Position numbers and translations under genes: made by a program
In this document: one piece after another, positions 1-30,966 of the stretch
Position numbering within the stretch: the first letter of the stretch is position 1
How the letters are laid out: every line of letters starts with the position of its first letter
Assembly (NCBI GenBank): GCA_964187785.1
Contig: OZ076409.1
Span: 77,254,001 to 77,318,000, forward strand
Direction: 5' to 3'
DNA from: Amphiscolops sp. MND2022
Lineage: Eukaryota
DNA length: 64,000 nt
Notes under the pieces: generated by a model
The model's input: the letters and a program-made list of their open reading frames with translations, nothing else
What the model was told of the DNA's origin: nothing
The model's database searches: none

Positions 1-418
1 CGTACTGTTCAGATCGTGAACCCAAATTTTATCAAGTTGCACATTATACTTGAAAACCCTGGCTCTTAATGAATGGTCTCAAGAAACGCAACTATGCATA
101 TGGATTTTTTGAGTAAAATCTATTAATCGTCGAAATCGTCGAAGTTCCAAACAAGTGACAGCTTGACGGTATTAGAATACATTGGACCACGTGTTCAATT
201 CCCCCCCCCCCCCCAAACTGCGGCGGGGGGGGGGGGGGGTAAATAAGACAGAAGGTTCAAATACCATTATGTCGACATAGTTTGCGTTGAAATTTTGATC
301 CAATATAATAATTGATGTCGACATAATCCTATCCTTTACATTGACTGTCATTTAAAAGTTGCTCATTTGATTTAATAGCGGACAAAATTTGCGCTGAAAT
401 CGGGGCCTTTTTATACGA

Positions 419-613
419 TGTGGCATAGCTGAATAAGCTAGAGGACAAACTTTATACTTTAGACACTATTATTCTTATTGTTATTTAATTAGTCTGAAGT
501 ACCTGCCTATACTGTATCATCTTTATCATACTAAAGTTCGTTTAGTAACAATAGCTACGAGATAAAATACAGTCTTGAAAGAAAGTAAATTCTTGTATCA
601 TAAAGTTACAACA
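419..613 (+). repeat. 5' LTR of the Mag-like Gypsy
   Basis: Direct repeat of 6304-6498; TGTGGC...ACAACA. Confidence 0.97.
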
Positions 614-625
614 TGGCGCAGTCAG
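614..625 (+). promoter_or_regulatory. Primer binding site, probably tRNA-Ser
   Basis: TGGCGCAGTCAG directly after the LTR, complementary to a tRNA 3' end ...CUGACUGCG-CCA as in invertebrate tRNA-Ser. The tRNA identity is inferred. Confidence 0.75.
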
Positions 626-684
626 TGTCAGTATAACTGACATTTACCACAAATATTCGTGATCAGCCCATCAATTACCAAAGA

Positions 685-3600: not shown

Positions 3601-6277
3601 CCACTTCAACCAATCACACGACGCGACTCGGATTAGTGAATCGAAACATTCCAAAACGCGTGAACAAACTGCCATTGCGTGCCTTAATCGACCGCCAGAA
3701 AGTTGCATCAATTCTATCGCAAATTCGAACAATTCAACTATGGACGCTAGAACCATAGACAATCTTGAAGCCGCAGACTCGTCTGCAGAAACCAGACAAC
3801 TGATACCCCGATGGAGAGACATAGTAAAACCGGGCATTTACAGACAATCCGGTGGCCCTTGGAAGAAATACCACGAGCCAAAATTTCTCCGGAACGAACG
3901 GAAAATAATAGAAGAGCGCCCACAATTAGCCATACAAAACTTACCGGGACAACAACAACAACAACCGCAAGGATTTCAGCCACAACAACGGCTAAAAGAA
4001 CAATGGACCGTTGACCCATTCTGGGAGCTAGATCGCCCACAGCGACCACAAGAGCAACCCGGGACATCATCTCCGGTCACATTGTAGGCCCCAATGGAAG
4101 AAGGCGAAATCGGATCAGACACCGATCAGGACCCGTCCGTCCTAGAAGTTCCGGCCATCAACTGGGCCAAATACGTGGGCGTCAAAAGCGTCCAGTACAT
4201 AAAGATGGGTCACGCTCCCAGAGTGGACGCTGAGGAACAAAACAATTGGGACCTAGGGAACGCCGTCAGAGAAACGGAAAAGAATTTCTCCACAGATCTC
4301 CAATTACTTATGTCGGAGACCACAAATGACCCTAGCCTCTTCAAAACGCTGGTATGTTTGGAACGCCAGCAACACGACAACATGCCCGAGGAATACACCA
4401 TGTACAAGAAAAAGCTCTCCACCAGATACGGATTGGTATTCTTCGAAGAACCTACGGAACACAATAATTAGCCTCCTTCACAAGGGACATCCCGCCATTA
4501 ACAAGATGTCGATGGCAGCAAGACACTTCTGGTGGCGAAAATTGACGGAAGCTATCCGGAAAAATTGCGACGGCTGTGTACCAAGCAAAATGTCCGGTAA
4601 GAGCTTTAAACCTAACATTCCTAGTAAGGAAGTAAGTCAATTACCAACGGTAAATAAACCGAACGAAGAAATCCAAATGGATTTCACCGGCCCCATAAGC
4701 GAAAAGAACCAAAAATTCTACATTTTACTTTCAATGGACCGATTTAGCAAATGGCCCGCAGCCAGCTTATGTAAAACCACGGACGGACAAACGGCGGTAG
4801 ATTTTTAGAACAGTACATAAATCTGAACGTCATCCCGAAAACCATTAGAACGGATAAAGCTACCGCGTTCACGGGCCGTACATTTAGAGACTTTTGCAAA
4901 ACTCACCAGATAAAATTAATATACGGGACACCGTATATCCATACACCGACAGGATTGGTTGAACGCGGCGTAAGAACATTGAAAGAAACACTACTAACCA
5001 ATATCAAGGCCGGAGAGAAATTCGGTAAAGCTTTAGATATAGCTCTGGGAATCATGCGGAAAACACCCCATACGAGACTAAAGAAGTCCGCATTTGAGCT
5101 ACACTAAGGACGCGAACCGAACACGGAAATAAACAATATGTTAAACCTAGACGCACTAAAGTCTATTACAAAAAGTTGTATTTCAGCAAAACCAGACACC
5201 TTACAGGTGTACACATTCAGCGGAGCTGGCGGTGCCTCTGACCAGCTACCGATGAAGCAGAAGAAAGGAGAAAAAAGAGTCAGTAAATATCCGTTCCTTT
5301 TCTTTGAAAAGAAAATAAATAAACCGAAGTTCGAAAGTGCATATTCCGATAAAAAACAGATAGCCATATTGGGCACCAAACATACAATAACAACGTCAGA
5401 TAATAAAATCTTGCACAGAGAACATATTAGTAAACCCATTTCTGAAATTGTACAGGAAAACAACACCAATCGGGGCACCGGACCACGAGGACCAGATGGC
5501 CGCTTTACCAAATCACCGAGGATAGTCAATGTCCCTGACTCAGACAGTGACCATGGAGAAGCCTCACCGGTAGTGACCGCCACAGCAACTACAACATCTG
5601 GAGAATACACAACACCGCCTCCAAAACACAGCACAATCGGCAGAGGACGACCAAAGCTAGTCAGGAACCGCCAAAATTCTGGCTCTCCGGGAGAAACTCA
5701 TACCAACCCGGACCAACAATCAAACATTGGACCGTTAACAGTAGTAACGGAGAACATGACGGACGCGGAAATAGACCGCGTCATTGAGGATGCCAGAAGG
5801 GCAAACACAGAGCTACACCTCAAAGACAATAACGGTAAGGTATTTCAAAATAACTACCAATCCCCCAAAGGAGGGGAAGAAGACAATGTAGAAAATAGTT
5901 ATACTGAACAAGACACCTCAGAACTAGAATTACTTAGCAATCTCAGCTCAAGTACCGAAATTGAACAAGAAACAAAAGAACATAATCTACGTAGATCGAA
6001 ACGCTTGACAAAAACCAACCCAATAATCAGGCTTAATAATCCAGTACCATCTGATTATAGGAAACACCGTCAAAAGACTGAATGGCCGGGAAAACACACC
6101 GGACACCGAGGACAATATGGACAACAACTGACCCAGCAAACTAAATGGACCGCTCCGGAAGAACATCCTGACAACCGGACCACAAAAGAAGGAAGTACAC
6201 GGAACACTGTGAACAACAACAACAGCTTTGGACGGAAAACCGCCTCAACAGTAGAAAACACACTCCCCATTGGCTAA
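685..6277 (+). pseudogene. gag-pol polyprotein, broken by frameshifts and stops
   Basis: Twin knuckle CNRCG..HECPAKGKKCAKCGKLGHYAKCC; protease FIVDTGS; RT KFDLDYAYGQ, FYGL, AWLDD; RNase H TTDAS, ELELLAVVW, TDH; integrase HKGHP..HFWW..C, MDF..MDRFSKW, RTD, GLVER; long C-terminal tail with LRRSKR. ORF pieces 685-1146, 990-1493, 1375-1884, 1841-3313, 3740-4471, 4326-4808, 5138-6277. Confidence 0.95.
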
Positions 6278-6303
6278 GCTACTTCCAATCAAAGAGGGGG
6301 GAA

Positions 6304-6498
6304 TGTGGCATAGCTGAATAAGCTAGAGGACAAACTTTATACTTTAGACACTATTATTCTTATTGTTATTTAATTAGTCTGAAGTACCTGCCTATACTGT
6401 ATCATCTTTATCATACTAAAGTTCGTTTAGTAACAATAGCTACGAGATAAAATACAGTCTTGAAAGAAAGTAAATTCTAATATCATAAAGTTACAACA
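6304..6498 (+). repeat. 3' LTR of the Mag-like Gypsy
   Basis: Direct repeat of 419-613, preceded by PPT AAAGAGGGGGGAA. Confidence 0.97.
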
Positions 6499-8249
6499 TA
6501 CAATTTTAGCTTGTTTAAAACGTGAATTTCTGCTATTTTGGACAATGATATCAAAAATTTTTGGTAATTTTTTTACCTGAAGTGTCCAAACAGTTGTAGA
6601 GGCAACCCTCTAAGGGTATACATTCATATAATATTCTCTTACTCGTGAAATATTTTTATTCAAGAACAAAGTGTGCTTTCGTGTTTCGTGTTGGGGGGGA
6701 TTCGCATCAAGGTGTACCTGGGGGGGGGGAATTGAACACATGGTCCAATACATTGAAGGAAAAGGAAAACTTATAGAAATGTTGTTCGCTGGACTTGGAA
6801 AACCAAAGCGTTACTCACCAAATGAAAACCTTTCTGATTCAGTTCGATCATTAGGAAAGTTTCTCCGCCCTCGAAATCTACCTTTTCTTAAGTGGCGCGC
6901 CTTGGTGGGTTTTTCTTTCGTTCGATATTCATTACCAGTTATCATTGATTTTGGTGCGATTGAGTACACTTGTAACATTCAGTCGCCAGTTGCATTATAA
7001 TTAGAGTTTAACAACGGGAGCTTTTCGGAGGTCGCCATGCAAGCATTTGGACGAAGGACGAATGATAACCATAATCGAAGCTTCAACAACGATACTTTTC
7101 AACAAAATCGCTTCCCTTCAATTTCATAAGCGAGTTGGGTGCAATGAAAGACCCACTTCATTGCTACGGTCGAAAGAATTCGGCGGCGAAACGAAAGTCA
7201 AGCAGTTAAAGCGCTTTTAGTTTGTTTGAATGGGCCTTCGCATGAGTTCCTTGTAGCATCCCAGGAGCTGAAAACGCATGTAGGGATTCTTCTTGCACAT
7301 ATCTTATGAGCACTCTTTTTAAAAAAATGAATCGAGTCACGGAGGTCATTGGAAACGATAGAGCGGCGCGCAACGAGTTCAAGGCTGTGGTTCAGAACGA
7401 AAGCGAATTCTTGCGGGATGTTGCACATCGCATTCGAAGTGTCGGAGTGCTAGTCTTCGCTCAGTGCTATCTCTGGTTTCGCAAAATGCTGCAACATCAT
7501 AAAAGTGTCTGGTGGTTCTAAAAATTCAGCCATCAAAAAGGTTTTTAAGGACGACATCATTTCGAAAACCAACATCAACCGATGACATTATTTTGTGCTA
7601 CATAGGGATGACAAATAAGATTTTAGGGAACACATTGATTTTGGCGACTAAATGTGTCACTAATTCTTTGGACATTCGTCAACACTTCAACCATGACTGT
7701 TGTTGTTGGGCTCTTAAATTTTTTGAGCTTTTTATAGGCCTTTGTGTACAAAAACAATTGTCCTTAGTTATTAAAGTTCGAGATGACGAGAATTCTAAAA
7801 GATATCCAAAATGCCTTTGAGACCCAACTTTTACCCTAATATTGCGGCAGAAGTAGGCTGTAGACTAGCCGGTTACGGCATAAGTCGGTCCATCGCTTCA
7901 GGCTCAAAATAGCAAAAGTCAAAGCATCAAGAATTCTCTTCCGGAACAATTTCCCAGCACCGAAAAATCGAAAGGAAATTTTGGCTGGGGGAGCATTTTT
8001 TTCAAAGCTGCGCCTCTTTAGTAAAACGCAGTTTACTTCGGTTAAATCGTCAAAAAATTAGATATAGCGCAAAATTTTGAACTTCCGCCTTCTGCTTAGT
8101 GAAACGCGATTAACTTCAGATATAATGTAGAAAATTCGGATTTAGCGCAATATTTTGTTCATATCAGAAACTGCAACTAGTATAGTTCAGATGCTTAGGC
8201 AAAATGGTACCATTGGCCCCCTGAAGTTCTGTAGAACTATATGTAGAAC

Positions 8250-10521
8250 TGTCACAGGCTGCCGCCTGTGACGGTAATCTCTACCAAATCACATTTGAAG
8301 GAGACAACACTAACCCACCCCCAGGAGTGCTGCCCATTTAAAGACTGACAAGGACAAAAAGTAATGTAAACGACTTGTATTTTGTTGTTATTTTTATTCC
8401 TTTGAATTTCACCACAAAAGACCCATGGTCCATACGGCCTCAGTGCAATTGATAATTTTAGTTTACAAGGCTGTATTTATTCGTTTAGTAAATCGTCCTG
8501 TGCCAGTTTTATTGTTGAAATGTTAATGAAATTTGGCAATTAGTAATTAAAATCAATGAATTAATACAATGCAATTGTATGCGGAAGAGAAAACGCGTTC
8601 AAATGAACGCTTCTTCTTGCTTATTGTACTCGCTGTACAAGCATTATAGTCCAATCAGAATGTAGTACATTAGTGTAGCTCCGTGGACAGAATGTCTGCC
8701 ACGGTGGAATTAGCGCGCGAGTGCCGCTAGTGCTGTAATTGAGTGTGGCTACGCGGACTTAAAGTCCGCTACGGTAAAGTATAATGTTAACATGAAATTA
8801 CATATTCTGGGCGCAAGTAGTATTGTAGATTAGTATTGAAAGTACATACAGGGCTCTGTAAACATTTTCTTACTTTGTCGGCTTAACTGTCAAAGCCCCT
8901 CATCCTTCTCTTTGATGCAATGACGTCATAGTGACGTAACCTAACAAAATGCTATTTTTAGATTACCATATCTATATTCAGTACTATGACCCGCAATTTT
9001 TGTGTTGTCACCTTCTCCCAACTATAAATAGGGAGGGCGCAGGACCAAAGGGACAATCTTTCAGAAACACGAATTACTAACAAGTTGCTAAATCTGACCA
9101 GTTGAATCTGATATTGTGCTTGCCTTAACCAGTTCTTTCATTTGTACTACTCGTTCTCCAATTCAATTATGCTTAAAGTGGTATTTCTTCAATGCCTTCA
9201 ACAAGAAAGCAAAAAGCTAAGGAAAGACGCTCTAGACAGTTAGACTTTATGTTTGATGTAGAAAATGTTGATGTAATGTTAGGAAGTTACTCACGGAATG
9301 ATGAGGAAAATGACCATAGTGAAAATGAAATAAATTCGGACTCAGAGTCAAGTAGACCACAACGAACCTCTAATGTAACTGGCGAAGATTTTTGGTCACA
9401 CCTCACGAACAGTAGAGAAAACATTGAGATTACTATTGAGACTACTAGAATGATAAACGAAGAAATTTCAAACCAAATGTCTAGGAAACTTAATTCGATC
9501 AATAACAGCTTAAATTCTCAGATACAAAATGCAATCACTGTTGCAAAAGCTGACACTGTGCTTCCTTTTATACAGAATGCATTAGAGATGCAGGGGAGAT
9601 CAAATTTTACCGTAGTGGACCGAGCGTCCAACGGGCTACATCCTGGCCCAAGGACAGGTAATTTCACCGTGGAGGACCAAAAGTCCAGTGGGCGTAAACG
9701 TAAACGTAATAAATAGGGAGGGCGCAGGACCAAAGGGACAATCTTTCAGAAACACGAATTACTAACAAGTTGCTAAATCTGACCAGTTGAATCTGATATT
9801 GTGCTTGCCTTAACCAGTTCTTTCATTTGTACTACTCGTTCTCCAATTCAATATTGCTTAAAGTGGTATTTCTTCAATGCCTTCAACAAGAAAGCAAAAA
9901 GCTAAGGAAAGACGCTCTAGACAGTTAGACTTTATGTTTGATGTAGAAAATGTTGATGTAATGTTAGGAAGTTACTCACGGAATGATGAGGAAAATGACC
10001 ATAGTGAAAATGAAATAAATTCGGACTCAGAGTCAAGTAGACCACAACGAACCTCTAATGTAACTGGCGAAGATTTTTGGTCATACCTCACGAACAGTAG
10101 AGAAAACATTGAGATTACTATTGAGACTACTAGAATGATAAACGGAGAAATTTCAAACCAAATGTCTAGGAAACCTAATTCGATCAATAACAGCTTAAAT
10201 TCTCAGATACAAAATGCAATCACTGTTGCAAAAGTTGACACTGTGCTTCCTTTTATACAGAATGCATTAGAGATGCAGGGGAGATCAAATTTTACCGTAG
10301 TGGACCGAGCGTCCAACGGGCTACATCCTGGCCCAAGGACAGGTAATTTCACCGTGGAGGACCAAAAGTCCAGTGGGCGTAAACGGAACTCCGAAGCAGA
10401 AAATGCCCAGAAAAGAAAACGTGGGAAAATCGTCCTAAAAGGTGTTTTACACGGGAAAATAGTAGACAAATGTCTAGAGAGGGTTCAGCCGACTCCTATA
10501 ATGGCGAACAAAATCGCGACA
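8250..10521 (+). repeat. 5' LTR (about 1587 bp plus a 685-bp internal duplication)
   Basis: Colinear with 22445-23861 joined to 25822-25989. Contains CCAAT (8651), TGACGTCA-like motifs (~8921-8938) and TATAAATA (9023-9030). Confidence 0.93.
9024..10385 (+). repeat. 685-bp-period tandem duplication inside the 5' LTR
   Basis: 9024-9700 is repeated at 9709-10385 with an 8-nt filler TAAACGTA. It gives two near-identical ORF starts MPSTRKQKAKERR (9192, 9877) and is absent from the 3' LTR. Confidence 0.95.
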
Positions 10522-11643
10522 TGGTGACAGGAGCCAACCTCACCCCCCATATGGTTCCTGAGTTTCGCACTGGACGGCCCATGCAATCCCGTGAACCCCA
10601 GCAACGTCAAACCTCTAACGCAGACGAGTCTTTGGACCATAGCCCACAGGTCCAAGAACCTGCAGGCCGAACTACCCCTACAGACCCCCTCAACCGTCTT
10701 GCTGATGTATTAGTTGGCATGAACAACCGTCCATCAGCACAAACACTGATGGTACGCCCAGTCAGCACAACTACATTGACGTTCGACTGTAAATCAGAGA
10801 AATTCAATTTTTTTGAAGATCTCTTTCACACAATGATAAAAATGCTAACTGATATGACCGAAACAATGAAAATAAACCACCCTCATTCATTATTACGCAA
10901 GAACGCGTCAAAAACTTTCCGTAACATCAATACGGCAAACAGGCAAACTTTGGAAGACCTTCTGGCAGTATTTCGTCAAAAATACGTCAATCCCGAGTCC
11001 CAGGCGACCGCAAAACACAAATGGCACAAATTGGTGTTTGATCCAAACACCCTGAAATTGTTCGACTTCCTTGAGGAATTAAACCAAGGAGCTGAAAAAG
11101 CGTTTGGCGAGAACACCCAGGCAAAGATCGACAGTCTCCTATATGCCAAACTGCCGCCCAAATTGAAACGCTCAGTCAATATGGCCAGACTTGAGAACCC
11201 CACCGACGAGGAAATAGTCACCCATTTAGAACGTGAGCTTGAACTCAACGGACTTGAGGAGGGAGATGACAGTCCAGTACCAACAATGTCCACTGCCCCT
11301 ACAGCAACACGACCGGGAACTGGCCTTCTTTCTTCGGGTATAGATCCAAACATTACTTGCAACTATTGCAAGAAGCCCGGACATGTCAAGGACGACTGCC
11401 GAAAACTCAAAAAAGGAAGAAAAACGCTGCAATGACGGGCAGGATACCAAAAAAGAATGTCCAAAATGTCCAACTTGCGACAAAACGAACCATCCGGCGG
11501 AACGATGTTGGAAAGGCGATGGATTCCACCTCAAGCCCAGAAATTTTGAACTGGAGGACACCACAGTTGCCGATACGTCCACCAGTCAAGATGATGCCAA
11601 AAATAAACAAACGCTTTCAATCTTTAAAAATCCAAAAAACTAG
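9877..11643 (+). pseudogene. gag (starts inside the LTR), frameshifted
   Basis: ORF pieces 9877-10527, 10470-11435, 11383-11643. Capsid-like TFDCKSEKFNFFEDLF region; knuckles CNYCKKPGHVKDDC and CPTCDKTNHPAERC. Confidence 0.92.
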
Positions 11644-14600
11644 ATTTGCCACGACTCCAAATAAATGAAAAACTTCGTGTCAGACAATATACAATATCTG
11701 ATCCTTCGACCATATATTACACTGAGTAATATACAACTCTTAAAGAAACTTCATCAACTGACTGGCAGCAGCAGATGAAGACTTCACCTAACTTTTCCAC
11801 CACTTCGGACCCTACGTCCAACAGACTACAAAACGATACTTCGACTATACGACTTATACCGCTCATTGATGACTATAACCCATATTACCCTGACCCTGAC
11901 CATTGTTTTGACCCATATTGGGAGGCTAATTGCTACAATCAACATCATCTATACTTTTACACCAATTATAACAAACCAGATCAGGAGGTAGAGTCGGACT
12001 CTTCCGAAGTAGATGAAGACCTGAATACCGTCCTTGGCAATGCCCGAGTTGACCCATGGCAACATGGCGCACAACTCACTAATCACACGACCCACTCTGA
12101 AGCTGACAACGATTTTCACCGTGGGGGACCACAAGTCTCCCTAGCCTCAGCAGTCGCAGCACGTTTTGTCAACACACTAGTCACCAGAACTGGCGAACCA
12201 GATTATTTACCGCTGACGACCAATCTTGGCCTCAAATACAAATGACGAATGCTCTATTTTCCGATGGATTTCGGCGAACTAACTCTAGATGGCCTTGTAG
12301 ACACGGGAGCCCTATCTAGTGCAATCCCAGAAGCTGATCTACGTAAAATCCGACTATTAGCCCCTCAGTCTATTGTCAAAGAGGGCCCAACACCCAACTT
12401 CCAAATTATGGTTGCCAATGGGCAGCTGGAGACTCCGAAGAGCACCGTCGAGCTGAAGGTTGAAGTCGGCGACATAGAATTCCACGAGATATTCATAGTA
12501 ATGGAAAAACTCACTAGTCCATTGATTGGTCTTTCGTTCCTCCAACGGAACAACACCATCCGGGACATGAGACAAAGTTTCCTGAACTTCCCTTTCTTTT
12601 CGATGCAATTGAAAACTGCCGATCACAAGTATACTAACATTATGGAACCCATCTGCATTAGAGAGGATGTAACTATCCCACCTTAGGACCGACACTCGGT
12701 CAAGCTGGCCTCAAAACTGTACGAAGGCACTACAGTTACTGGGATCCTTCAACCGAGCAACACACTTACAGATGATGGCGAGATTGCCTTCTGTGCTGCT
12801 CTAGTCACTTTGACCAATGGTCAAGTATCGGTTCACCTGAACAACTTTACCTCAAAAGAGGTACACAAGTAGCCACTTTTACTGTCCTGACACCAGAACA
12901 GATGAAATATGTCAAACCCATAGATCCGGTGAAGACATGGCACCTCTTGCAGGATAACCCTGAGAATGCTGCCTACTACGCAAGCAGCTTGATCAAATCT
13001 ACAAAACCTGAGGACTTCAAGGAAAACTACTGGTTTCCTACACCAGAGGACCCTGGGGACCCTCAGCAACACACGCCAGTCCAGAAAAGGATTTTATCCG
13101 AACTAATTAATCTCCAAGAATTCGAGAAATTCAACCCTCAGGACGACCATGAGTCGCGCCGTCAGTTCCTGTCTAATTTTGACTGGACAGAATAGAATCT
13201 ATGCTACAACCCGCTGAATTCGCTTGCATAGAGGACTTAGTTGACGAATTTCACGACATATTCGCAAGACATCGATTTGACATAGGTATGAACGAGGAGT
13301 TCAAGGTCAAATTGACACCCAAAGAGAATTCCTCAGCCTATAGTCAGAGTTTGCCTACGCCAATCAACCTCAAGGAAGACAACCTCGTGGAATTAGCATT
13401 ACTACATCGCTAGGGATAATTAAAACACACCCATTCTCCAAATACGCAAGCCCAATTTTTGCCCAAAAGAAACCTAACGGCAAACTGCGACTGCTTGTCG
13501 ATTTGCGAAAAATCAATAACCTTATTTCCGACGATTATATAAATAACAATCACCCCGTGAGTACCCTCACAGATGCAGCCCAACACCCATGGCATGGCTG
13601 GCAAGAAGCTATTCTGCAAATTGGACTGCTCGCAAGCATATCATTGCTTACAGATGGCTGACAAGAGGTCAATCGACATGCTTGCTTTCAATTTCGCCAG
13701 CAGAACCGTCGCATACAGAAGATTGGCGCAAGGACTCAGCAGAGCCTTATCGGCCTTTTCGAGTTTTATGCGTGAATATTTGGACAAGGTCATCAAAGCA
13801 GACCAATGTGCCCAATTTGTTGATGATATTGGCATCGCTGTCAATAATGCCGAACAACTTATCAACAACCTGAGGGCCACATTTCAGTGCATTCAAAATG
13901 CTGGTCTCAAACTCACGATGCATAAATGCCACTAGCACTCAAACAACCCTTACCGAACAAGCAAATAGCCCTCATGACTGACGCTAGCCTTTAGGCCGCA
14001 GGGTATGCAGTTCTCATCGAAGATGATCCCCTCGAGAAATACACATCAACAAGGAAAACTTTCGCACCAGTAGCTTATGGATCCAAGACCTTTAGTCCTT
14101 TCCAACTGAAAATGTCTATCTATGCGAAGGAATTCTTGTCACTTTTCTTTGCCTTTAAGGATTTTGGACATATCTTTTGGGGAACCCCGAAACCGGTGAT
14201 TACACTTACCGACAATAAATCCGTCACACGATTTTTTCAAACGAAAATCATTCCACCGACACTATGGAATGCATGCGACTATGTCATTCAGTTCAATTTT
14301 ACAAATGCTCATATTCCAGATAAAAACAACACCGCTGTCGACTACTTGTCCCGTCTCGAAATCTCTCCAAAAGAAAAACTAATCCTCCGAATTAGAGAAG
14401 ATATTCCATCGACACCGATTGAACTACATGTCCAATCAGCAGGAGTGTCGGAGGAGGAACAAATCTTTTATAAGGAGGATGACGATGAGACTGAAGAACA
14501 AATTTTACAACGCAAAAGGAAATCTAGGGATCCAGGAATAAGCACCCAAAATGCTCATAGAAGTTCGACAAAAATATTACTATCCTGGCATTGCAAAATT

Positions 14601-16084
14601 TGTTAAAAATGGGTTCAACAATGCGAAATTTGTATAAAAGACAGAAGAATTCCAAACTCATCCATCACACCTGAATTGCTCAATCTGCTCGAATGGGACT
14701 TAGGTCCAGAAGACGCAATGCAAATCGATTTTTTACCAAACCTACCCCCCAGCGGAGGATACGAAAACATCATTACTGCAATAGACGTGTTTTCGCATTA
14801 TCTTTTTGCTTACCCAGTTACAGACGCTTCAGCCACGAACACGGCTAATGTCATTTTTGACATAATTACGAAACAGACCTACTTGCCTGCCACCTTGATC
14901 ACTAACAAAGGAACGGCCTTTACGTCCAAACTGGTGGCCGAAATTGCTCAAATTTCGGGAATTCAAGTGAATGGCGCAACTACAAAACACCCACAAATTA
15001 TTGGTAAACTCGAACGCACACACGCTAGCCTGAAAACGAACCTAAAAAGGGCCTCAGGGGACTACCGGCGACAATGGTTTATATATTTGCCTTTAGCCGT
15101 ATTAAACTATAATACGACCTACCACGCCACCTACCACGCTGTGAACCATCCAGAATCTTTCATGGACGAATCCCATATAATATATTAGATCACAAATTGG
15201 GCCTTAATCCAAACTCGAAGGTCTTTCCAACCACAGACTTTGCTGAGGAATTTCAATGACGCACGCAAGTACTACTCGATTCCACAAAGAAAAACATCAT
15301 GCAACCCTACTTGAAATACAAGGAGTATTACGACCGAAAGGCCAAAGCAGCCCTTTTGAGACAAAACGACTATTGTTTCATATTACAACCTATCGCTGGC
15401 CACCAAGGATCAAAAATCCCGTTTTGAGAATACAGATGGACAGGACCCTATATTGTAGAAAATGTCCTACCAAACGAAAATTATATAGTCAGAAAACTGA
15501 ATTCCAACAAAACGCAAATTCTACATCGTATTATATTGCGTAAATATGAGCCGAACACCGTCCTACAAGTCATCAGACCGGAAGACATTTTGCAACCGGA
15601 TGATGAAATTATTATTCCGCAAGACAACCTCTATGTTATCACTTGGGAAACCAATTTTGGAGAATTCCCCAATTCCACTGAAAATAACACAATTCCTACG
15701 AATCGAGATGCTCAAGACACTTCTAATGATTACGTCAATGATGACAGAGCGCCAAACGAAATTTTGGCCGACGTGGACTTTAGGTCCACTGGGCCTCACG
15801 AAAATGACGCCAGAGCGCCAGTCGAGTGTTTTACCGATGTGGACCTTACGTCCACCGGGCCTCACGAAAATGATGATTTTGATTCGCTTAAAGAAACCCG
15901 CTCAGAACGTACAGACCACAGGTTTGACGATCGACAATCGTCAGGAGGGAGAGATACTATCGTGCCCGAAGTATTAGATGATCAAAATGATGATGTGATG
16001 GTAGAAAATGATAGCTCTAGGGGAGGAAAATATAATCTTCGTCCTAGACCCACCCCCAACTTTACTGACGAATACAAATACTAG
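11640..16084 (+). pseudogene. pol (PR-RT-RH-IN), decayed, with two internal deletions
   Basis: LDGLVDTGA; LDCSQAYH, LAQGL, QFVDD; MTDAS, SIYAKEFL, TDNK; WVQQCEIC, QIDF..IDVFS, GKLERTH; ends KYNLRPRPTPNFTDEYKY*. Sequence is missing after ~13932 (RT thumb/connection) and ~14527 (before integrase). Confidence 0.95.
15767..15876 (+). repeat. Two 66-bp tandem units in the integrase tail
   Basis: ADVDFRSTGPHEND / TDVDLTSTGPHEND. Confidence 0.85.
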
Positions 16085-16254
16085 TCAAATCTTTAAATTA
16101 CTGTCCTGTTCTTGAGCAATAAAAATATCTTTTAGGGACCTGACTGACTTCTAAACGGAAAACTACGATAGACTTCAGACAACAAATGGAAAAAGATGAA
16201 TAAAAAACTGAATAAATAAAGGCTGTTTATCATGTGCAAGTATGTATTAGACAA

Positions 16255-19200
16255 TTAGAGCTTAGTGGGACTCCCAATCGAATGGCTGCTTCGTTCGATT
16301 GAACCCCCTCTCGACACTGATCGGCCCTGGCGCTTGCTAGCCTTTTTGTCCCAGGACTTTTCCGGCGACTTATCAGAACTCTGAGGATCAGCGCTAACAC
16401 ACATGGTGACTTTGCGCTGTTCAGTAGATTGGGAATTTATGCAGTCTTCAATAGCAGCGCGATTGAAACGATTGATCTTGTCCCAAGGACAGTAGGTACT
16501 ACTGAGCCCAGTACCACCAAATAATTTCTCCAGGACCAGAAAATGAGCGATAGATCCATCAGAGAAAAGAGTGTTCAGTCCGCGTGCGACATTTCCCAGA
16601 TAGGACTGAATAGGAGCAACAATGTCAAACAACACACTTTTGGGTTCGTCAGTCTTGTTGGAGCCAAATCTAACAGGTGCAAATGTAAACCTGGGTTCAT
16701 CGATGCAGAGACAGCTTAGACGGAAAATCCTTGACAGATATACTCGGGACTTTAATGCAGGTTGCTTGGACACGAAGTCAATGGTATCGGCTATTAGTAA
16801 CTTAGGTTGCTGCATCTCAGGTTGAGTGCGTCTCAACTCGTCAATGATGGAAAGGTACTCTTCAATGTAGATAGTTTCCTCTTCGGGCTGGAAGACACCT
16901 CTGAATCGGAAACTAGAGAACAGGTTCTTAAAGCAATACGCAGCTTGCTCCATTGTGTCCACAAACAGGGTCTCTAGGTCGAAGGAGCCTAACCCTTTGA
17001 CGATATCTGAAGTGAATCTGGTGAGTCCAGTAGCTGCTCCGAAAAGATGTGCCACATACCCACGAGCTTGTCGACCAAATTCCTCACGATTATTGGCGAT
17101 TATTTCTTCAAGGCTCAGTTCACTATTTCTGCTTCTTTTCGCTCCTTCTCGGATTTACGCTTGCACCAAGCATCCAGTCGGGGTCATAGTATTAAGCGGG
17201 ATATAAAATCACTGACTGATAGGGATTTTGAATCTGGGATGGAAATTCGGAGAATGTCATAATATCAGGTTCGGAAGGCAGGCAACTGGATCGAATGCAC
17301 CTCTGGGCAAGTTTGTGCAGATACTGGCAGAGCTCCTTGTGGACATGAAACCCTCGATCACGCCTCGTCTTCAGGTTAAGAATGAAACTGCTGGTATCTA
17401 AAAAATACAACAATGAACTCATGAAAACAGACAATTACCACAACACACGATATACCACTTACAATCGCAGAACAATCGACAGAACAAGTCCAATCGGCAA
17501 GGAAAGAGGTCATCATAGACTATGGACAATTCCAGATTCTGTGGCTGATATTGTTATGGATTTGAACTAAACTGGACTCGAGGTCATCTTAGCCATACAA
17601 TGACATTACTCATTACCTCGTTTCGGACTCCTTGCTTTTCTTGTTGTGGGGCATGCTTGGAGAGGTGCCCTACCACCTTCGACCAATTGTCAAGCAATTC
17701 CTGACAGAGCGCACGGAGTCCACTGACATCAAGCTGGCCTGTCCTGATGGCCTAAAACAAGATACCTAAACTAAGCTCAATAGCACAAAACCTCACATGG
17801 ATAGGTACGCTCACACTCCTGGAAACGACGAGTCACTGCTTGATGAAGTGGAGTTATTTACCTTGGTTAATTCTGGAGACAACAACACCCAGTCCAGCTC
17901 TGAGCTGCCCCTGAGGGAGATGACAAGGTAGCGCAGTACGGAGAAGAAGTCTTTACGTCCGAAGACACTCTGGCTCTTCTTGTGCATCAGGGTTGACAGG
18001 GTTAGCTCTTCGAAACGAGGAGTACTCTGTACTCCACATGGACTGTAAGGGCTCTGATCAACCAATTGCACTGTCCGGGCACTACTTCCAGTACATTTAA
18101 CTAGGCGTGGCTTAGTCGAGATGGCTCCAATGATGTACCAAATTAGGCACACTCCAGCTTGGGTCTGGCCCTGTACCCGTCCAGTCCGTTTGAGGAACAC
18201 TCGGCATAATTGATCACCGTGACAGAACCTGATAAATGACAGGAGGAAAACGCCGTCAGTAGCAAATTCTACTGCGTATTCGCCTGACGAATTGATCTGA
18301 CATTCGAGGTCATCAATAAATTCACGAAACATATGGTGAAACATGACCTAAACACAAATTCGATTGATTAGCCCCCGGAAATACTACGAGTACACAGCTT
18401 AACAGAGTGCGTAAGCGGATAAGATGAAATAATTGTGATTACTTACACTAATTCTTTCCTTCCCCCAGTTGAAATCCGTAAACAGGGCTTGGTGATTGAC
18501 TATGACTCCGACGTCACTCCAAAAGCTTTTCAGAACCTCAAGGCACCGTGAGTAGGAAGGAATTTGGCCAGTACGGGCAATTGGACTCGTGCACGATTAT
18601 CGGACGAAGAAGACATGTAATCCGTCCCAGCCATGAATTCATCATGAAAGGGAAGTTTTTGGCCAATTTCAACTAACGGAGCGTCTTTAAAGTAAGGCAA
18701 CTCCAATTCCAATTGATATGGTGAGAGTAGTTTACCATCTCCACCTCGGACTTGGTGGATTTTTGACTTGGTCACTGGGTCAACTTAGTAAAGGTACTCG
18801 TACCGCCACCTTTGGTCTTTACGTAAATGTTTTTCGGAGGAATGATGGCGCAAAAGTTTCCGTGCTCCCTCGCCATAAAGGGAGATGTTGGCGTTACAGA
18901 TCTGGCAGTAGAACTTGTAAGGATTCCACCTTGGGTCCACTGGACCTGAAACGAATGTTCGGGTCCATTCTATCCCTGAAGTAAGCTTCCTTCAATATCT
19001 TGCAAGACCTTGTGATCTGCCTGCGGGTCGCTGTGCCTCGGGAACTGGAACTGATTCTTCCACCCTGATTATTAGGAAGCTTGCCTTTGTGTTTAATTGC
19101 TTCGGCCTTCAAGGAAGCAAGGGTTTGGGCATCAAGACTGTCGGCAGCTGTTAATGATGTGCCGGCCCGACGGTCCGTATAGCTGCAGGACGCACCCTCG

Positions 19201-20571
19201 GAAGCTTTCGGCGGAGCAATTATCTCATCAGTTTCTGGCCTTTCGTAAGAGTAACCAATACTGGAGAACTCATCATCGCTCTGGAGGGCTCCGCTTGTGT
19301 CACTCAGTTGACCCAGTGTCGTGCTTCTAGACCTTTGACTCTGGCCGACTTATAAAGTCGCTGGGGTAGTCATGGTGCTAGCAGAGGCTTCTAAGGTGAG
19401 TCTCGTCGTTTTTTGGATAATGCCTTCTAACATGTCTTGGGAGGCCCTCACAGTCTCGTCAGCAACAATCTTAAGAAGGCTGCTCAATTGATCCTCAGTA
19501 AACGCAATAACTGGGTGTCCTTGGGGGAAATTGAAGGGTTCATTAGTCTGGAAGTGTTCTTTGATGAGCGCCCTGCTAGTAGGAAGTAAGACTTTGACCT
19601 CTAGGAACCCCAGGAAGGCCAACAGTGGTAAACGCACTTTCAGCGTCACTAGACTCAATGTTAAGCTGTCGGGACTTCAAGTCTAAAGCCTGAGCAATCG
19701 TAGAGCCAGCTGGGTTGAAAGAAGACTCGGCATCAGTTTCAACTACAGGTTCACTACTGCTAATAGTGACAGCCCGAACGTCTTTGTGACCTGTTTCGGC
19801 ATTTGAGTCCGTGTCAGCCTCTTCATCACTCATGGTACGAAATGGAGTAGGAGCTCTTTGTTTGGCTGGAGGATGACTCCATGAAAGGATGTACTCCCTT
19901 TTCTTGGTTGTTTGTTTGTACCCTGAGTACGTTTTGTTTCCGCTTGAGAGCTGGCGCCAAGCACTGGCCCAAGAAATGAGACTTTAGGTCCAGAGGGACC
20001 TTGTTCAGTCGGGCTCAATTGGAAGCTTGTGGAGGGAATCATCACGATAGGTTCACTCTCAATCGCTTTTACAGTGTTGTTTGCCCCCACTAAAGCCTCT
20101 TGTTTCGGTAAATCTTTTTCAACGCTCTCAGTTTTGCGGGTCGAATATGCCTGGACGCTTTCTCCTGAACTACTATTTCCAGACGCAAACGGATTGACTA
20201 GGGATGGAGTGTAATCCGGAGACGGTGGTCGAGGGGTTGGTTGACAAACTGTAGGAGTAGAAGAATCGACATTTTTTTGTAGAGGAATCTTGTTCAGATG
20301 AAGCCTGTAATCCACTTCCCTCAAGGATTTCTATGGCAGTGAGTAAAACACTAGGAGAAGTAGGAGGTGAAATTGTCTGTTTGGAGGAAGAAGCTGCTTC
20401 TCCCACGGTTGTGGGACTGCTGGTCTCCACAGCCTCATCAGGGCGTTGGGTCAAACTGTTATCTCTGATGCTTTCATTGTTCATAGACGCCTGGGTCGGT
20501 TGGCCGTTTGATTCAGTTCCTAAATGGAAAGGAATAATTTCGCGCGGTTCACTTCCTGCAAATGAATCCAT
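16255..20571 (-). pseudogene. Antisense intron-containing gene inside the Gypsy element: S/T/P-rich N-terminus, C2H2-type zinc finger, hAT-transposase-like body
   Basis: Minus-strand exons 20571-18447, 18347-17862, 17751-17463, 17397-16255. GT-AG introns 18446-18348, 17861-17752, 17462-17398 have matching phases (0, 0, 1). FYCQICNANISLYGEGARKLLRHHSSEKH at ~18913-18827. Several stops and frameshifts. Confidence 0.8.
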
Positions 20572-21725
20572 CTCGCCGCTTTTTAAAATCTTCCGGAAGT
20601 AGAGTTCAACTCATTCAATTTAGTTTGAAACATTTCACGACGGAGGAAGTACAATTAGTCGAACCTAAACCCTGATCAAGTTTAGTTAGACAAAATGAAA
20701 GAACCAACCTGATGTTATTTCCATGACGGAAAACATAATTGTTGTCCCGAACGTCGTTTGAAAATGTTGGGCTGAAGAATGTGCTCAAGGGGTTGACTCT
20801 GTCCTTTTGAAGGCTCGTGATAATCTGTGACTGATCAGTGTGTCTGCTCAGCTGTGTGGTTCTCAGAAATAAAAATCCCTTGATGGGTAGAATTACAAGT
20901 TGAGGTGACAATCAACTCGAGTGTAGAGAATGAAAAGGGGCGGAAGAATACTGGATCACAGACACAGAACATACATTATAATATAATAACATTACTTACA
21001 CTTCCTGACCTCACTAGACTTAGAGACAATGTACACGAAGTACAAAACGCAAGACGGTTAATTACTTACCTGGCGAATGAACGTCGTGGCCTATTAAGTA
21101 GTTCTTTTATCTACAATTATGTACAACTTATCACATGTACCCTTAGTGTTATTATTTAATCAAGATCTGTTTCATCATGGATTGAAACTGCCAGTGAAAT
21201 TCATGTCTTTATTTCATCTTAGGGATTAGTTCATTTCGTAAATTAGTGTTAGTTTAACTGAAATAGCCATTCTCTTGGCTTTCGTCAATTTTTTTTGTTC
21301 TTTTCTCTGCGACACCTCATTGGTTACTTCAGTTGATGTAGCCGTGCGGACTGAAGGTCTTTGATGGTGAATTTATTTACCGGCAGTTAACTTGAGTTAA
21401 CACTTATTACACCTATTCACTGCCATCAAGTAGTTATTTAAACAGCTAGAAAGTCCTTCAAGAACCTTTTAACATCAAGTTTACCTTAGTTATCATTCCG
21501 GGAAATTGGGTAAATTCTACATTTAAGGAATGTTTGGTAAAGATTTAGGAAAGATCAGAAACTGTTTCCCCGCTGGGGAACTCCCGCGAAAACGGGAAGA
21601 CTGGCAGCCCAAGTATCTCGAGGAGAAATCATTCATCACAGTTTGAAAAGTGTAAAACAGTCGAGTAAAGAAACCTCAAAATTGCGAAGAAAGTCTTTCT
21701 TAGGAGATTTCAAAACAAAATGTAA

Positions 21726-22536
21726 ATGAATCTACCGTTCTATCTAGACGATCTCTCAGCGCTTCCAGTCAGTCCTAGTCACTACTCTTCTGATGAAGAA
21801 ATGGATGTGGACACCCAGTTAGTCACTGCTACCAAAGACGACTCCGAAGATAGCGATATAGGAATGATCGCGTGTTACCGGCAAGACCAATTCAGCCAGA
21901 TGGACTAGTCGCAGGACGCAAAATGACTGTGGAGATACCAAAAAGTGCTGGGGGAAACTTACCCCGATTGTCCCTAGGAGAATTTTGGTAGCATGATGCA
22001 ATTGGTGGACAGCCAGGCTGATCCGCTGGATATGGGAGCGGGGCCAAGTACAACTACCCAAAGCAGTAGTCCGCCCATAAGGTATTGTGGTAAACTAACG
22101 CCATTAGTTGACACGCCCCTATCTCCTCCACCACACGAGCGTGGTCCAAGTCACAGCAATTGTGACTACACAACGACAATGCAGACTCGGATGCCGCTCC
22201 GACCGAATTCTCATATACAAGCACTGAGTGTCCGCAAAGCGTCACAATGTGGACAGCCAAATCAAGCTCAATATGGTGACTGCATAGTTTGCGGAAGGAG
22301 TTATGAACAAATAAAGGAAACTGCTGCTTGGATACTTAGAATCTTCTACTTATCGTGGAGAAGGTTACAACGATCAACAAAGAAGACGTAATGCTTATTT
22401 AGCTGGAATGGACCAAGGGACAGTACTCTTTATCCCTAGGGGAGTGTCGCACGCTGCCGCCTGTGACTGTAACCTCTACCAAATCACATTGGAAGGAGAC
22501 AACTCTAACCCACCCCCAGGAGTGCTCCCCATTTAA
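21726..22536 (+). pseudogene. Sense accessory ORF of unknown function running across the PPT into the 3' LTR
   Basis: Pieces 21726-21908 and 21993-22391, then a shifted frame GYLESSTYRGEGYNDQQRRRNAYLAGMDQGTVLFIPRGVSHAAACDCNLYQITLEGDNSNPPPGVLPI* ending at 22536. Includes CIVCGRSY. Confidence 0.7.
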
Positions 22537-25500
22537 AGACTGACAAGGACAAAAAGTAATGTAAACTACATGTATTTTGTTGTTATTTTTATTACTTTGA
22601 ATTTCACCATAAAAGACCCATGGTCCATACGGCCTCAGTGCAATAAATAATTTTAGTTTACAAGGCTGTATTTAATCGTTTAGTAAATCGTCCTGTGCCT
22701 GTTTTATTGTTGAAATGTTAATGCAATTTGGCAATTAGTATGTAAAATCAATGAATTAATACAATGCAATTGTATGCGGAAGAGGAAACGCGTTCAAATG
22801 AACGTTTCTTCTAGCTTATTGTATTCGCTGTACAAGTAATAAAGTCCAATCAGAATGTAGTACATTAGTGTAGTTCCGTGGAGAGAATGTCTGCCACGGT
22901 GGAACTAGCGTGCGAGTGCCGCTAGTGCTGTAATTGAGTGTGGCTACGCGAACTTAAAATCCGCTACAGTGAAGTATTATGTTAACATGAAATTACATAT
23001 TCTGGACGCATGTAGTATTGTAGATTAGTATTGAAAGTACATACAGGGCACTGTAAACGTTTTCCTACTTTGTCGGCCTAACCGCCAAAGCCCCCATCCT
23101 TCTCTTTGATGCAATGACGTCATAGTGACGTACCCTAACATGATGCTTTTTTTAGTTTACCATTTCTATATTTAGTAACATGACCCGCAATTTTTGTGTT
23201 GTCACCTCCTGCCAACTATAAATAGGGAGGGCGCAGCACCAAAGGGACAATCTTTTAGAAACACGAATTGCAAACAAGTTGCTAAATCTGACCAGTTGAA
23301 TCTGATATTGTGCTTGTCTTACCCAGTTCTTTCATTTGTACTACTCGTTCTCCAATTCAATATTGCTTATAGTGGTATTTCTTCAATGCCTTCTACAAGA
23401 AAGCAAAAAGCTAAGGAAAGACGCTCTAGACAGTTAGACATTATGTCTGATGGAGAAAATGTTGATGTAAGGTTAGGAAATTACTCAAGGAATGATGAGA
23501 AAAACGACCATAGTGAAAATGAAATAAATTTGGACTCAGAGTCAAGTAGACCACAACGAACCTCTAATGTAACTGGCGAAGACTTTAGGTCACTACTCAC
23601 GAACAGTAGAGAAAACAGTGAGATTACTATTGGTACTACTAGAATGATAAACGAAGAAATTTCCAACCAAATGTCTAGGAGACTCAATGAGATGAAAACC
23701 AGCTTAAAATCTCAGATACAAAATGCAATCACTGTTGCAATAGCTGACACTGTGCTTCCTTCTATACAGAATGCATTAGAGATGCAGGGGAGATCAAATT
23801 TAACCGTAGTGGACCGAGCGTCCAACGGGCTACATCCTGGCCCAAGGACAGCAATTGTCACTGTCATGGACATTTTGGTTAGGAAAATCACTGTTTAGAT
23901 GGTCCTCATTCTGTCCATTTCTCTGGTTGCCTTTTGCGTTCATGTTTCGCTGAACTTCGAAAATTGGTTCCGGTCTCTCAGACGGAACGTCACATCCCTT
24001 TCTGGTCCAGTGTCTTGATCCGGCCATAATGACATTTTGAATCTGTGGAAGTACTTGAGTACTTATTGCATCACTTATGGCTTTTTGTATTTGGACACTC
24101 ACAGAGTTCATCATCTCGTCCATCTCTCGTGAAATACGAGAATTTAATTCACTCGACAGTCTATAAATCTCAGCACTAGAGTTAGCCGTAGCTGAATTGC
24201 GGTCAAACTCGGCATTAATACCGGCGTTGGTAGTTCTCTGCTTTCTACCCACATTCTCATCTCCATTTTCGGGTTCATTACTAGCGAAACTTCTGGATCT
24301 CCTAGGCAAATTGCTATTTAAACTGCCTTCCCTCTCTCTCGTGTCAAAGTGGTTCTCACCTAACATGATATCTAAGTTCTCGATATCAGACAACATTTCG
24401 AGTCCTCTCGACTTTCTAGCTTTCTTTTGCTTTCTAGTGGTAGGCATTGAAACGAACCTGGTCAAATATTAAATTATTTAACACCAGGAAACAGTCTTTT
24501 GTAGAAAGTTTGTAAGAGAAGGCTATTTTTACAAACTGAGCTTGAGGAGCAAAACAAAGATTGTGTCTGCTCAAGGAAGTAGCTCCTATATATACTTCCT
24601 TGGGCGGGATATTTAGGATACAAATACTCAGAAAATGTGACAATAACATTCCGAAAGCGCCTGATATACATATTTGTGTGGACATCTAAGTGCCGCCGAA
24701 ATGTGGTTGGAAAGGTCACGCGACCGTTCAAATTCTTTCACTCACAACACAAGCAAACATTTGAAAGGTGCGAGACACATCAAACAGGGTATCAAGCCAC
24801 AAGCATCTGAGGAATGTCAACAATTCCGTGTCGGCACGTGCCTACACAAGTGGACTGTTCTGGTAAATAACTAATACAACTGCATATTACTGCACATGTC
24901 TATTATACCTAATACTGCCACAACTCATACAAATCAACTGGACAAATCAGCTAAATCAGTCTATAAGACTGTCATCTAAAACTACAACATGAATCGTTCT
25001 TAATCGCGTCGAATAATTTAGAGAGGCAGATATTAGTTTCTGGCATGAACACAGCAGCACATGACATTAAAAGCATAAGGGTACATACATCACTCTAATT
25101 CGACACTCGAATAGCCGGCTTCAAAAGTAGCCGAAACCGGCCACTATCCATCTGGTCTTACTAACAGAAAATAATAATCCGGCAAATGGCCTTATTCGAC
25201 CAATTATTAAAATAAAGTGTGAAACTGCAAAAATGGGTATTTAATCAACATGAAAGGCACAATTACCTAATTATCAATCAAGTACATGAATGTTAGGCAA
25301 TTTATAACTCGCAAGCGCAAGACGCTCGGAACCGGCCATTTGACCAAAGTACTAGACGATAAAAGCAGAATTACGTCACGTGGCCTAAACCGTCCAATTG
25401 GTGAATACAATAATAGCACCGCCACATGAGCAAACATGATTGGTCAGCATAACGAGCTCAAGTGACGTTTCCGAAATTGGAGTTACGTTCACTTGAACTC

Positions 25501-25989
25501 CTCTCCTTTACGCTGCATAGCTGTTTCAATTGCTTCAATTGTTTACATTGTTATACTGCATTTTCAAATTTGATAATCACAAGCATCTCATCTTAATTTC
25601 TCAATTGTTGGCCTTAACAGACTAATACTAATACAAATATGTACAAAACGAAAAAATGAATAACTTCAATGAATGCAACACATAAAATGATGAAACGTAA
25701 AAGTTTAGGGTTTTTGATTACTTTCCTCTAGTAGATGGGTAAGGTGCCGACAGCTGTCTCTTGTCCCTCCGCCGTTGTCGTGATTTTTGTACCGTCACAG
25801 GCGGCAGCCTGCGACATTCACCGTGGAGGACCAAAGGTTTCATTGGGCGACAACGAAACTCCGAAGCAGCAGAAAATGCCCAGAAAACGTGGGAAAATCG
25901 TCCTAAAAGGTGTTTTACACAGGAAAATAGTAGACAAATGTCTAGAGAGGGTTCAGCCGACTCTTATAATGGCGAACAAAATCGCGACA
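22445..25989 (+). repeat. 3' LTR (about 1585 bp), interrupted by a sister-family solo LTR
   Basis: Matches the 5' LTR and contains the gag N-terminal ORF from ATG 23386. It resumes at ~25817 and ends CGCGACA at 25989, followed by the TSD. Confidence 0.93.
23862..25816 (-). mobile_element. Solo LTR (1955 bp) of a related Gypsy family
   Basis: On the minus strand it starts TGTCGCAGGCTGCCGCCTGTGACGG and ends CCATGACA. TSD GTCAC/TTCAC, TATA near 24590. ORF MPTTRKQKKARKSR (ATG 24447) is homologous to MPSTRKQKAKERRSR and open to the LTR end. Confidence 0.9.
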
Positions 25990-29691: not shown

Positions 29692-30042
29692 TTTTTAGTC
29701 GGCGCTTCATGAAGGGAAACGCGACTATGATACTGACTCTTTTTTATTCAATCCAAACGACCTGACCAAACAAGTTCTACAAAAGTTCTACAAAACGTTA
29801 AGGTGTCAAATTCGACCATCTGGCTTAGCGAACTGAACCGAAAAGGTTTTCCTTTTTGTTCCGCGTAACATACAGTACCGGGCTAGACTAAAGGGTTTCT
29901 TTCAGTTTTTCGGCACTGAGACTTTTTTCAAAAATTTGTTTCCTCAAAGGGCCCCCTTCAATTATTTTGATGTTTGGCGACAGAATGGATGTTGAAAAAT
30001 TCCACAGGGTCCCCCTTTTAGTTATTTTCGGCATTGTGAGAC
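29692..30042 (+). mobile_element. Helentron/DINE-1-like element, 5' part (continues at ~37591-37775)
   Basis: TTTTTAGTCGGCGC...CGCGACT head hairpin and AAAGGG-CCCC/CGGCATTGTGAGAC internal units. Similar to the copy at 58190-58610. Confidence 0.7.
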
Positions 30043-30966
30043 TGTTGCAGCCTCAAACCATGTCAAAAAAATTGAAGGAAAAATAGGTCGAGTTAGCTAT
30101 TTTCAAAATGCTGTAAGAAAGTGTGGAATTGGATTTGAGGGCTGGTATTCCTTCCTCCGTCAAATTTTGACCCAAATGAGAAATCTAGACCATAAAACGA
30201 AAATCAGAGCTGAAAAAATTTTTAAATCTTGTATTCTGGGTAATTTTTGATCGTTTTTTCATAGTCAGTGAATATTTGGACCTAATTCTTTGTTTATTGT
30301 ACTTAAATGGTTATGAACGCCATATTTGGGCTACGTGGGTGTTCCTAGGACCCACGAGGACTGCTTGAGAACTTCGCTAATCATTTAATAGCAATAAAAA
30401 AATGCAAATCTATGCCTTAATCTTGCTGAATTGTATGCTTTTCATATATACCTTTATATATTTTGGTGCCTATTTACAACTCAGATAAGTAATTTGTATC
30501 AACCTGCTCTACATGTCAAGGCGCTTTTACGGTCAAAGTAAATTTAACTAGAAACATCTATTATGGAGTGTTTCCTGTATGCTAAAGTAACAACCAGAGT
30601 TAACTTCTACAAAAAACGCACAACCAAATAGAGATTCAAACAGGTCGACTTTGACGACAATGAAAGCTTGGAAGTTTCTCGTGCACTTAATTCTGTTAAC
30701 TCTGGTTATTGAAGAGCTTTATCAGAGTTGAGCAAGTGATATTATATTGTTTCGAAAATCCAACGTCAATTTACTTATATTGCATATGATTGCGATGTTT
30801 TCGCTTGAGGAAGTTATCGTAGACGCAAGGATTTGGACTTATTGTTTGGTCTAGCAGATCAATAACGCTGCCCATCATCGCGACATCTGAGTTGATTCCT
30901 ATAGTCACAGTTTAGAATTTGAAACTTACTTCATGTTTGTGAAACAGAATAAGTACAAAATCAAAG

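Follow-up and report, generated by a model that had tools for sequence, protein, structure and literature searches.

The window, by which we mean the whole 64,000-nt stretch of the Amphiscolops sp. MND2022 assembly analysed here, contains a whole but decayed copy of a Ty3/gypsy LTR retrotransposon at 8250-25989 on the plus strand, bounded on both flanks by the 5-bp target-site duplication AGAAC. The 5' LTR (8250-10521, plus strand), which has the TG...CA ends typical of such repeats, carries a 680-bp tandem duplication (9024-9703 and 9709-10388) and is followed directly by a PBS-like motif at 10522-10533, while a polypurine tract (22434-22444) lies just before the 3' LTR (22445-25989). Pieces of gag are found at 9862-11435, including a zinc knuckle match under the Pfam cut-off, and pieces of pol at 11730-16084, which Pfam places in the gypsy order of protease, RT, RNase H and integrase and which are broken in this copy. 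In relatives the gag ORF, of about 590 codons, starts within the 5' LTR, some 650 nt ahead of the LTR end. With LTRs 93% identical to each other, a broken pol, and frameshifts and stops in the antisense gene described below, the window copy is an old one. Internal duplications in tandem, 0.7-3 kb long, are frequent among these elements, being seen in the window (9024-10388) and at L047/L048, L063/L064, L065/L066 and L187/L188. The 3' LTR is interrupted at 23865-25816 by a 1.95-kb insert in reverse orientation with LTR-like ends, which is probably a related family's solo LTR; a clear target-site duplication was not seen around it.

Two additional genes lie between pol and the 3' end of the element. 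One, on the plus strand, is an ORF of about 270 codons (21720-22533) that runs into the 3' LTR; it is selected in relatives and broken in the window copy. It is oriented divergently from the antisense gene, has an acidic N-terminal part and a C-x2-C motif, lacks a Pfam match and was found in 26 of 33 loci selected by RT, with third codon positions 0.4-0.6 identical compared with mostly 0.65-0.95 for the first two. The other is the antisense gene, to which the remainder of this analysis is devoted. Elsewhere in the window, a second and unrelated gypsy-type element occupies 418-6499, with 197-bp LTRs that are 99% identical and an extra ORF of 389 codons (5108-6277) that has no match in Pfam. Integrase core and DUF5641 pieces near 36600-37750 suggest what we take to be a BEL/Pao-type remnant, and a 374-codon open frame on the plus strand at 48182-49306 gave no Pfam match. 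Short repeats are dispersed in both orientations at 29700-30050, 37600-37800, 43000-44600 and 53500-58600, some with tRNA-like B-box motifs; they are possibly a SINE- or MITE-like family, and ARAGORN finds no tRNA.

The antisense gene runs on the minus strand from 20571 to 16255, between pol and the 3' LTR, and comprises five exons and four introns encoding about 1,320 codons. It sits wholly inside the genomic RNA unit, tail to tail with pol, the two stops being about 170 nt apart. Exon 1 (20571-18447) opens with an ATG at 20571 and holds about 708 codons in a relative. It is followed by intron 1 (18446-18348, 99 nt, phase 0), exon 2 (18347-17862, 486 nt), intron 2 (17861-17752, 110 nt, phase 0), exon 3 (17751-17617, 135 nt), intron 3 (17616-17545, 72 nt, phase 0), exon 4 (17544-17463, 82 nt), intron 4 (17462-17398, 65 nt, phase 1) and exon 5 (17397-16255), of about 380 codons, predicted to be helical and ending in a stop at 16255. 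The window copy itself cannot make the full protein: exon 1 has several frameshifts and stops, and exon 5 changes frame twice and contains one stop near 17264-17127. Some 190 nt upstream of the ATG (20572-20760, bounds approximate) are conserved at all three positions (0.74-0.97), and we infer that they form a candidate promoter or 5' UTR.

The preliminary description of this DNA had proposed an antisense gene with three introns, those numbered 1, 2 and 4 here, joining their exons in frame. The positions, lengths and GT...AG ends of all three proved accurate, and the gene is indeed an intron-bearing antisense one; its extent is larger than was claimed, its protein had been left unidentified there, and the frame does not stay open across the three joints, as the fourth, 72-nt intron is needed. 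Treated as a single exon, 17751-17463 contains two stops in the window copy and two to four in each of the 26 copies spanning it, which led us to reject the three-intron model. With intron 3, which contains the in-frame stops, removed, exons 2-4 are stop-free in most copies. Two trivial origins of the signal were also rejected: the introns exceed what chance splice-like motifs would give, and a shadow of a gene on the opposite strand is incompatible with the 6-27 stops held by the opposite frames.

The 1.07-Gb assembly was searched for further copies, DNA search giving 42 matches and protein searches at least 150 matches each. We aligned 27 of 30 close loci, down to 70% identity, omitting three partial or overlapping fragments. 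Among these aligned copies the GT donors of introns 1-4 are present in 27/27, 27/27, 26/26 and 26/26, and the AG acceptors in 26/27, 27/27, 25/26 and 26/26; over the close copies, 208 of 210 sites retain the expected ends. Exon identity between families is 0.84-0.90, 0.93-0.97 and 0.51-0.61 at codon positions 1, 2 and 3 (about 0.87/0.94/0.55), whereas the intron interiors are 0.38-0.69 identical (about 0.4-0.6) and lack codon periodicity. The contrast foreseen in the preliminary description, of splice sites and exons more conserved than intron interiors, is thus borne out. Exon dN/dS is 0.04-0.13 when a family C copy is compared with family B or window copies. The decayed window copy gives 0.14-0.22 against family B, and synonymous divergence from family E is mostly at saturation. 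For pol, dN/dS is 0.03-0.05.

The same structure extends well beyond the close copies. At 20 more diverged loci, the joints extrapolated for introns 1-3 show GT-AG ends in 20/20, 16/20 and 18/20 cases, with the same four codon positions split and intron lengths ranging from 65 to 250 nt. Intron 4 has GT-AG ends in 14 of these loci and is absent from six, the gap being zero in five and two in the other, which has an indel nearby. Ten distant loci gave GT-AG ends at introns 1-4 in 10/10, 10/10, 8/9 and 7/9 cases. Database proteins point to the same donor from another side: 112 of 120 extend to the end of exon 1, and the next residue is Val in 110 of the 112, and Val-Ser in 96, as read-through of the GT donor gives.

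Natural relatives that lack intron 1, 2 or 4 join exactly at the predicted joints. Five database proteins (P0110, P0264, P0338, P0340 and P0355) have a zero-gap joint at intron 1 and one (P0291) has such a joint at intron 2, reflecting either genomic loss or a cDNA source. Intron 4 is exactly missing from one lineage of relatives (L143-L145, L148-L150, L206, L218, L225, L229 and L231), including five of 22 loci of the RT-selected set, and this lineage has a longer intron 3, of 132-193 nt where measured. Since the distant loci retain intron 4, its absence suggests loss rather than gain. A locus on C8 that at first looked intron-less proved to be an internally duplicated copy whose intron 1 has suffered a deletion, and it was excluded from the count of losses. 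Conserved GT/AG ends, phase-consistent exons under selection and exact intron-less counterparts are the marks of a spliceosomal gene, and on these comparative grounds the antisense gene is almost certainly real, selected and spliced.

How a retroelement could hold introns at all is answered in part by the way that its copies arose. Of 12 other copies for which a script located both ends, 11 have their own 5-bp target-site duplications in differing flanks, and in many of the 20 long copies the LTR pairs are 99-100% identical; the family therefore spreads by retrotransposition, and the distinct duplications rule out segmental duplication as the sole mode. All antisense exons are open in six of the 20 long copies, as is the pol core in six, and the clade is both numerous and young. 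The retrotransposed copies retain the introns of the antisense gene, in agreement with the preliminary description, which had taken the host to be a retrotransposon that could carry a conventional spliced gene with introns antisense to its genomic RNA. Introns that are antisense to the genomic RNA appear in it as their reverse complement, and the spliceosome ignores them. It is thus very probable, from established splicing biology and in keeping with the target-site duplications, that the genomic RNA carries these introns unspliced and is copied with them through reverse transcription, while a separate antisense mRNA, with its promoter in the spacer of about 1.1 kb, would be spliced by the host.

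Carriage of the gene is a general property of the clade. Where the gene itself led to the locus, at 20 of 20 diverged and 11 of 11 distant loci, pol lies on the opposite strand, tail to tail with it, and no free-standing copy was seen among the 31 diverged loci fetched, all of which had pol adjacent. Finding pol through the antisense gene is open to bias, and a gene-independent sample was therefore drawn, of 33 of the 146 RT matches, chosen by eye among those that the antisense searches had not already listed. Of these 33 loci, 28 have one or more of exons 1, 2 and 5, and 20 have all five exons. Among the five loci without the gene, two also lack integrase in the stretch examined, one has a 60% integrase, another retains the sense ORF, and the last is a plain absence of the cassette. 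With an E limit of 0.001, a profile of exons 1-2 retrieved 1,224 representatives, some of them (P0340, P0264) without a close match in the window's genome. The position and orientation of the gene are unchanged even between pol lineages about 58-77% identical, and antisense distances measured at 44 loci are correlated with those of RT (Spearman 0.50-0.65, with 0.78 for integrase; 0 of 500 permutations). The antisense gene is a standard part of this clade.

Over shorter distances the picture is one of exchange. RT is 95-100% identical across the RT matches, with exon 5 only 41-68% identical among the RT-selected loci. Family C is like family E across gag-pol (mostly 0.82-0.99), yet its cassette and U3 are like those of family B, the switch point lying near the end of pol. 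As read from these alignments, the cassette and U3 are exchanged as one module, separately from gag-pol. That the two travel together could be due to plain physical linkage, which is enough to give the pattern.

The predicted protein has about 1,320 residues (708+162+45+27+1+380). Exon 1 encodes a long, acidic and Ser-rich N-terminal part, mostly modelled at low confidence, and then a zinc finger and helices. The finger, C-x2-C-x16-H-x5-H, has all four ligands conserved as well as an upstream Trp and Phe, and its spacing falls inside the range of hAT proteins of the same genome, with no Pfam match to zf-BED. Sequence comparison did not put a name to the protein. In Pfam scans the antisense protein matched no family above the cut-off, with neither the C-terminal Dimer_Tnp_hAT (PF05699) nor, at E up to 1, Transposase_28 (PF04195) recovered. 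A profile search of the PDB gave no matches, a search for longer homologues with the window's exon 5 as query yielded 0 of 2,133 candidates, and HMMER and three hhalign tests against hAT proteins from 16 loci of the same genome scored within shuffled controls. A DUF4371 search of the genome found no match, and its control gave none either.

Comparisons of structure and by language model gave signals that were weak but concordant. Two natural contiguous pieces were folded, P0110, which is without intron 1, and an exon 4-5 piece from the lineage lacking intron 4, with a mean pLDDT of about 64 in both models. The P0110 model lays out exon 2 as three strands, helix, strand and helix, a predicted RNase H-like core of beta-beta-beta-alpha-beta-alpha type. 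In Foldseek the hAT transposase Hermes fills seven of the top ten rows for this model, with a best E of 4.4e-3 (above 0.001). VIA-align places P0110 model residues 440-552 on Hermes 148-266 with Z 6.3 and rmsd 3.7 over 105 residues; Pelota, kinases and integrases score Z 6.1-7.1, equal to or above Hermes, and all VIA Z values are under 8. The exon 4-5 model is helical and aligns collinearly with Hermes 341-572 in VIA (Z 5.0, rmsd 7.2, 173 residues), at rank 4 of 48,161 and with the longest alignment among the best 50 rows. For this C-terminal model, Foldseek found no match in PDB and BFVD, and a second VIA-align run was uninformative. In the ESM Atlas the best score was 0.93 to an unnamed cluster, and the ten best family-bearing matches (0.87-0.92) belong to one family or clan, comprising DUF4371, ZBED RNase-like, DUF659 and zf-BED, which we take to be hAT-transposase domains; an exon 5 query gave no usable match.

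None of these comparisons is significant alone. Two halves of the protein and two kinds of method agree, however, and do so collinearly, and for this reason we regard an origin from a hAT transposase as probable. The models likewise make it a good bet that the protein follows the hAT domain order of BED-like zinc finger, helices, RNase H core, helical insertion and C-terminal helices. In Hermes, D180, D248, D402 and E572 are named as affecting activity in the accessible text of PMC2533014. An intact D-D-E triad was not found in the antisense protein: the residue after predicted strand 4, the likely position of the second Asp, is Gly in 89 of about 95 rows and Asp in nine of nine hAT rows, a placement made by eye from predicted secondary structure without a significant alignment. 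At the end of predicted strand 1, also mapped by eye, Glu is seen in 39 rows and Ala in 39, while a Glu within that strand is conserved in 84 of 90 rows and several acidic residues are conserved in exon 5. Granted the hAT domain order, the protein is likely to be catalytically dead. Inverted repeats of at least 40 nt flanking the gene were not present in the window.

What would such a protein do for the element? Overall, we put at about even chances a composite reading in which a spliced five-exon antisense gene, under selection and likely hAT-derived without cutting activity, serves as what is likely the element's own DNA-binding regulator. In this reading the encoded protein would enter the nucleus and bind DNA without cutting it. 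Because the cassette moves together with U3 rather than with pol, and has diversified much more than pol has, we favour the role of a self-acting activator or anti-silencer: the protein may, at somewhat less than even chances, bind its own cassette or the U3 of the LTR, with the long acidic N-terminal part promoting or protecting transcription of the element. The fullest version is offered more tentatively still, that a hAT transposase was domesticated, its introns included, as an accessory factor that keeps diversifying, and that the dead protein binds U3 or cassette and activates the element or shields it from silencing, with cassette and U3 swapped among nearly identical pol genes like a specificity cartridge.

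Other roles can be envisioned from the same observations. A dead transposase would be expected to retain DNA-binding and oligomerising surfaces, and the spliced protein might instead act at integration or nuclear import, tethering the pre-integration complex to chromatin or steering it to targets. The presence of at least part of the gene in 28 of 33 RT-selected elements is in keeping with this, as are the nuclear roles suggested for antisense ORFs of plants in the accessible parts of PMC7264820. We nonetheless consider it unlikely, since the protein comes from a separate mRNA outside the polyprotein, the target-site duplications have no obvious common motif, and the cassette is swapped freely among nearly identical pol genes (RT 95-100% against exon 5 at 41-68%), which argues against a tight fit to integrase. 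Somewhat more doubtful is a self-limiting role, whether of a repressor protein or of antisense transcription that damps the element through dsRNA or transcriptional interference with the protein assisting. The tail-to-tail arrangement, with about 170 nt between the end of the gene and the pol stop and the gene inside the genomic RNA unit, would make sense-antisense pairing possible, and such pairing has been proposed for plant elements in the available portion of PMC7264820; yet a role of RNA only leaves the exon dN/dS of 0.04-0.13 unexplained, and repression sits poorly with a clade so numerous and young.

The remaining alternatives concern origin and activity. It is rather improbable that the gene, real and spliced, derives from something other than a hAT transposase, such as a captured host zinc-finger/RNase H-fold gene or another DDE superfamily. 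The insignificant hAT sequence match and the tie of other RNase H-like folds in VIA-align leave room for this reading; both halves independently place Hermes high and in collinear order, however, the Atlas features concur, and pol adjoins the gene at 31 of 31 diverged loci. That the protein is a still-active DNA transposase, or the gene a recently nested hAT passenger, is very improbable. The strand-1 Glu (84 of 90 rows) and the conserved acidic residues of exon 5 would suit an active enzyme, but Gly stands at the likely second Asp, the window holds no inverted repeats of at least 40 nt around the gene, and a passenger would not readily keep a fixed place and orientation across pol lineages about 58-77% identical with divergence correlated with RT (Spearman 0.50-0.65). 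We return, then, to the domesticated, self-acting regulator as the reading to set beside known systems.

The layout itself is of a known kind. In plant Ty3/gypsy elements, the region from pol to the 3' LTR can hold additional ORFs in antisense orientation, termed aORF-3R, among them gene23 of Grande, RIRE2 and TRP28 of Retand (PMC7264820, PMC11963269, accessible parts). As far as those accounts go, the aORF-3R share the position and orientation of the window gene, are present in most copies and are conserved about as well as the other proteins of their elements; an own promoter has been proposed and a nuclear or DNA-binding role suspected, as here. By the defining feature of aORF-3R, antisense and between pol and the 3' LTR, the window gene belongs with them. 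They are described as ORFs, with introns not reported in the portions available, whereas the window gene has four conserved introns and about 1,320 codons and lacks PF04195. A nested transposable element as the source of aORFs is presented in the accessible text of PMC7264820 as without support, the origin of most being unknown, while for the window gene structural and language-model evidence points to a hAT transposase. The brtn gene of Boty-like gypsy elements in Botrytis cinerea (PMC8365987, PMC4227169, PMC7264820, in part) is likewise an antisense accessory gene in a gypsy element.

Animal LTR elements also acquire genes downstream of pol, as with the ORF3 captures of bdelloid rotifers, of env, DEDDy, GDSL, CC and TM types; the accessible part of that account mentions neither 'intron' nor 'transposase' (PMC5408684), and other ORF captures are described in PMC6431247 and PMC5408684, as far as these were available. 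Among openly accessible papers, as listed and as judged from the opening lines of their abstracts, no LTR element with an antisense gene of hAT origin turned up. Compared with hAT transposases proper, such as Hermes and the ZBED, FAM200 and DUF4371 derivatives, the window protein would share an arrangement, predicted from its models, in which a BED-like finger precedes an RNase H core and a helical insertion, but it has no significant sequence similarity, has Gly at the likely second catalytic Asp and bears about 530 additional N-terminal residues; its gene is mobilised by an LTR element, theirs by their own inverted repeats.

What is new, then, is the size of the gene, the persistence of its four introns in place throughout a deep radiation apart from a single precise loss, the swapping of modules and the likely hAT origin. 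Antisense accessory genes were already known in LTR elements, and this clade likely represents domestication of a class II transposase by a class I element. It also gives a case of a retroelement that retains four spliceosomal introns at fixed positions over a deep radiation, one precise loss marking a lineage. With many young families that combine nearly identical pol with very different cassettes, the function of such a gene is testable here.
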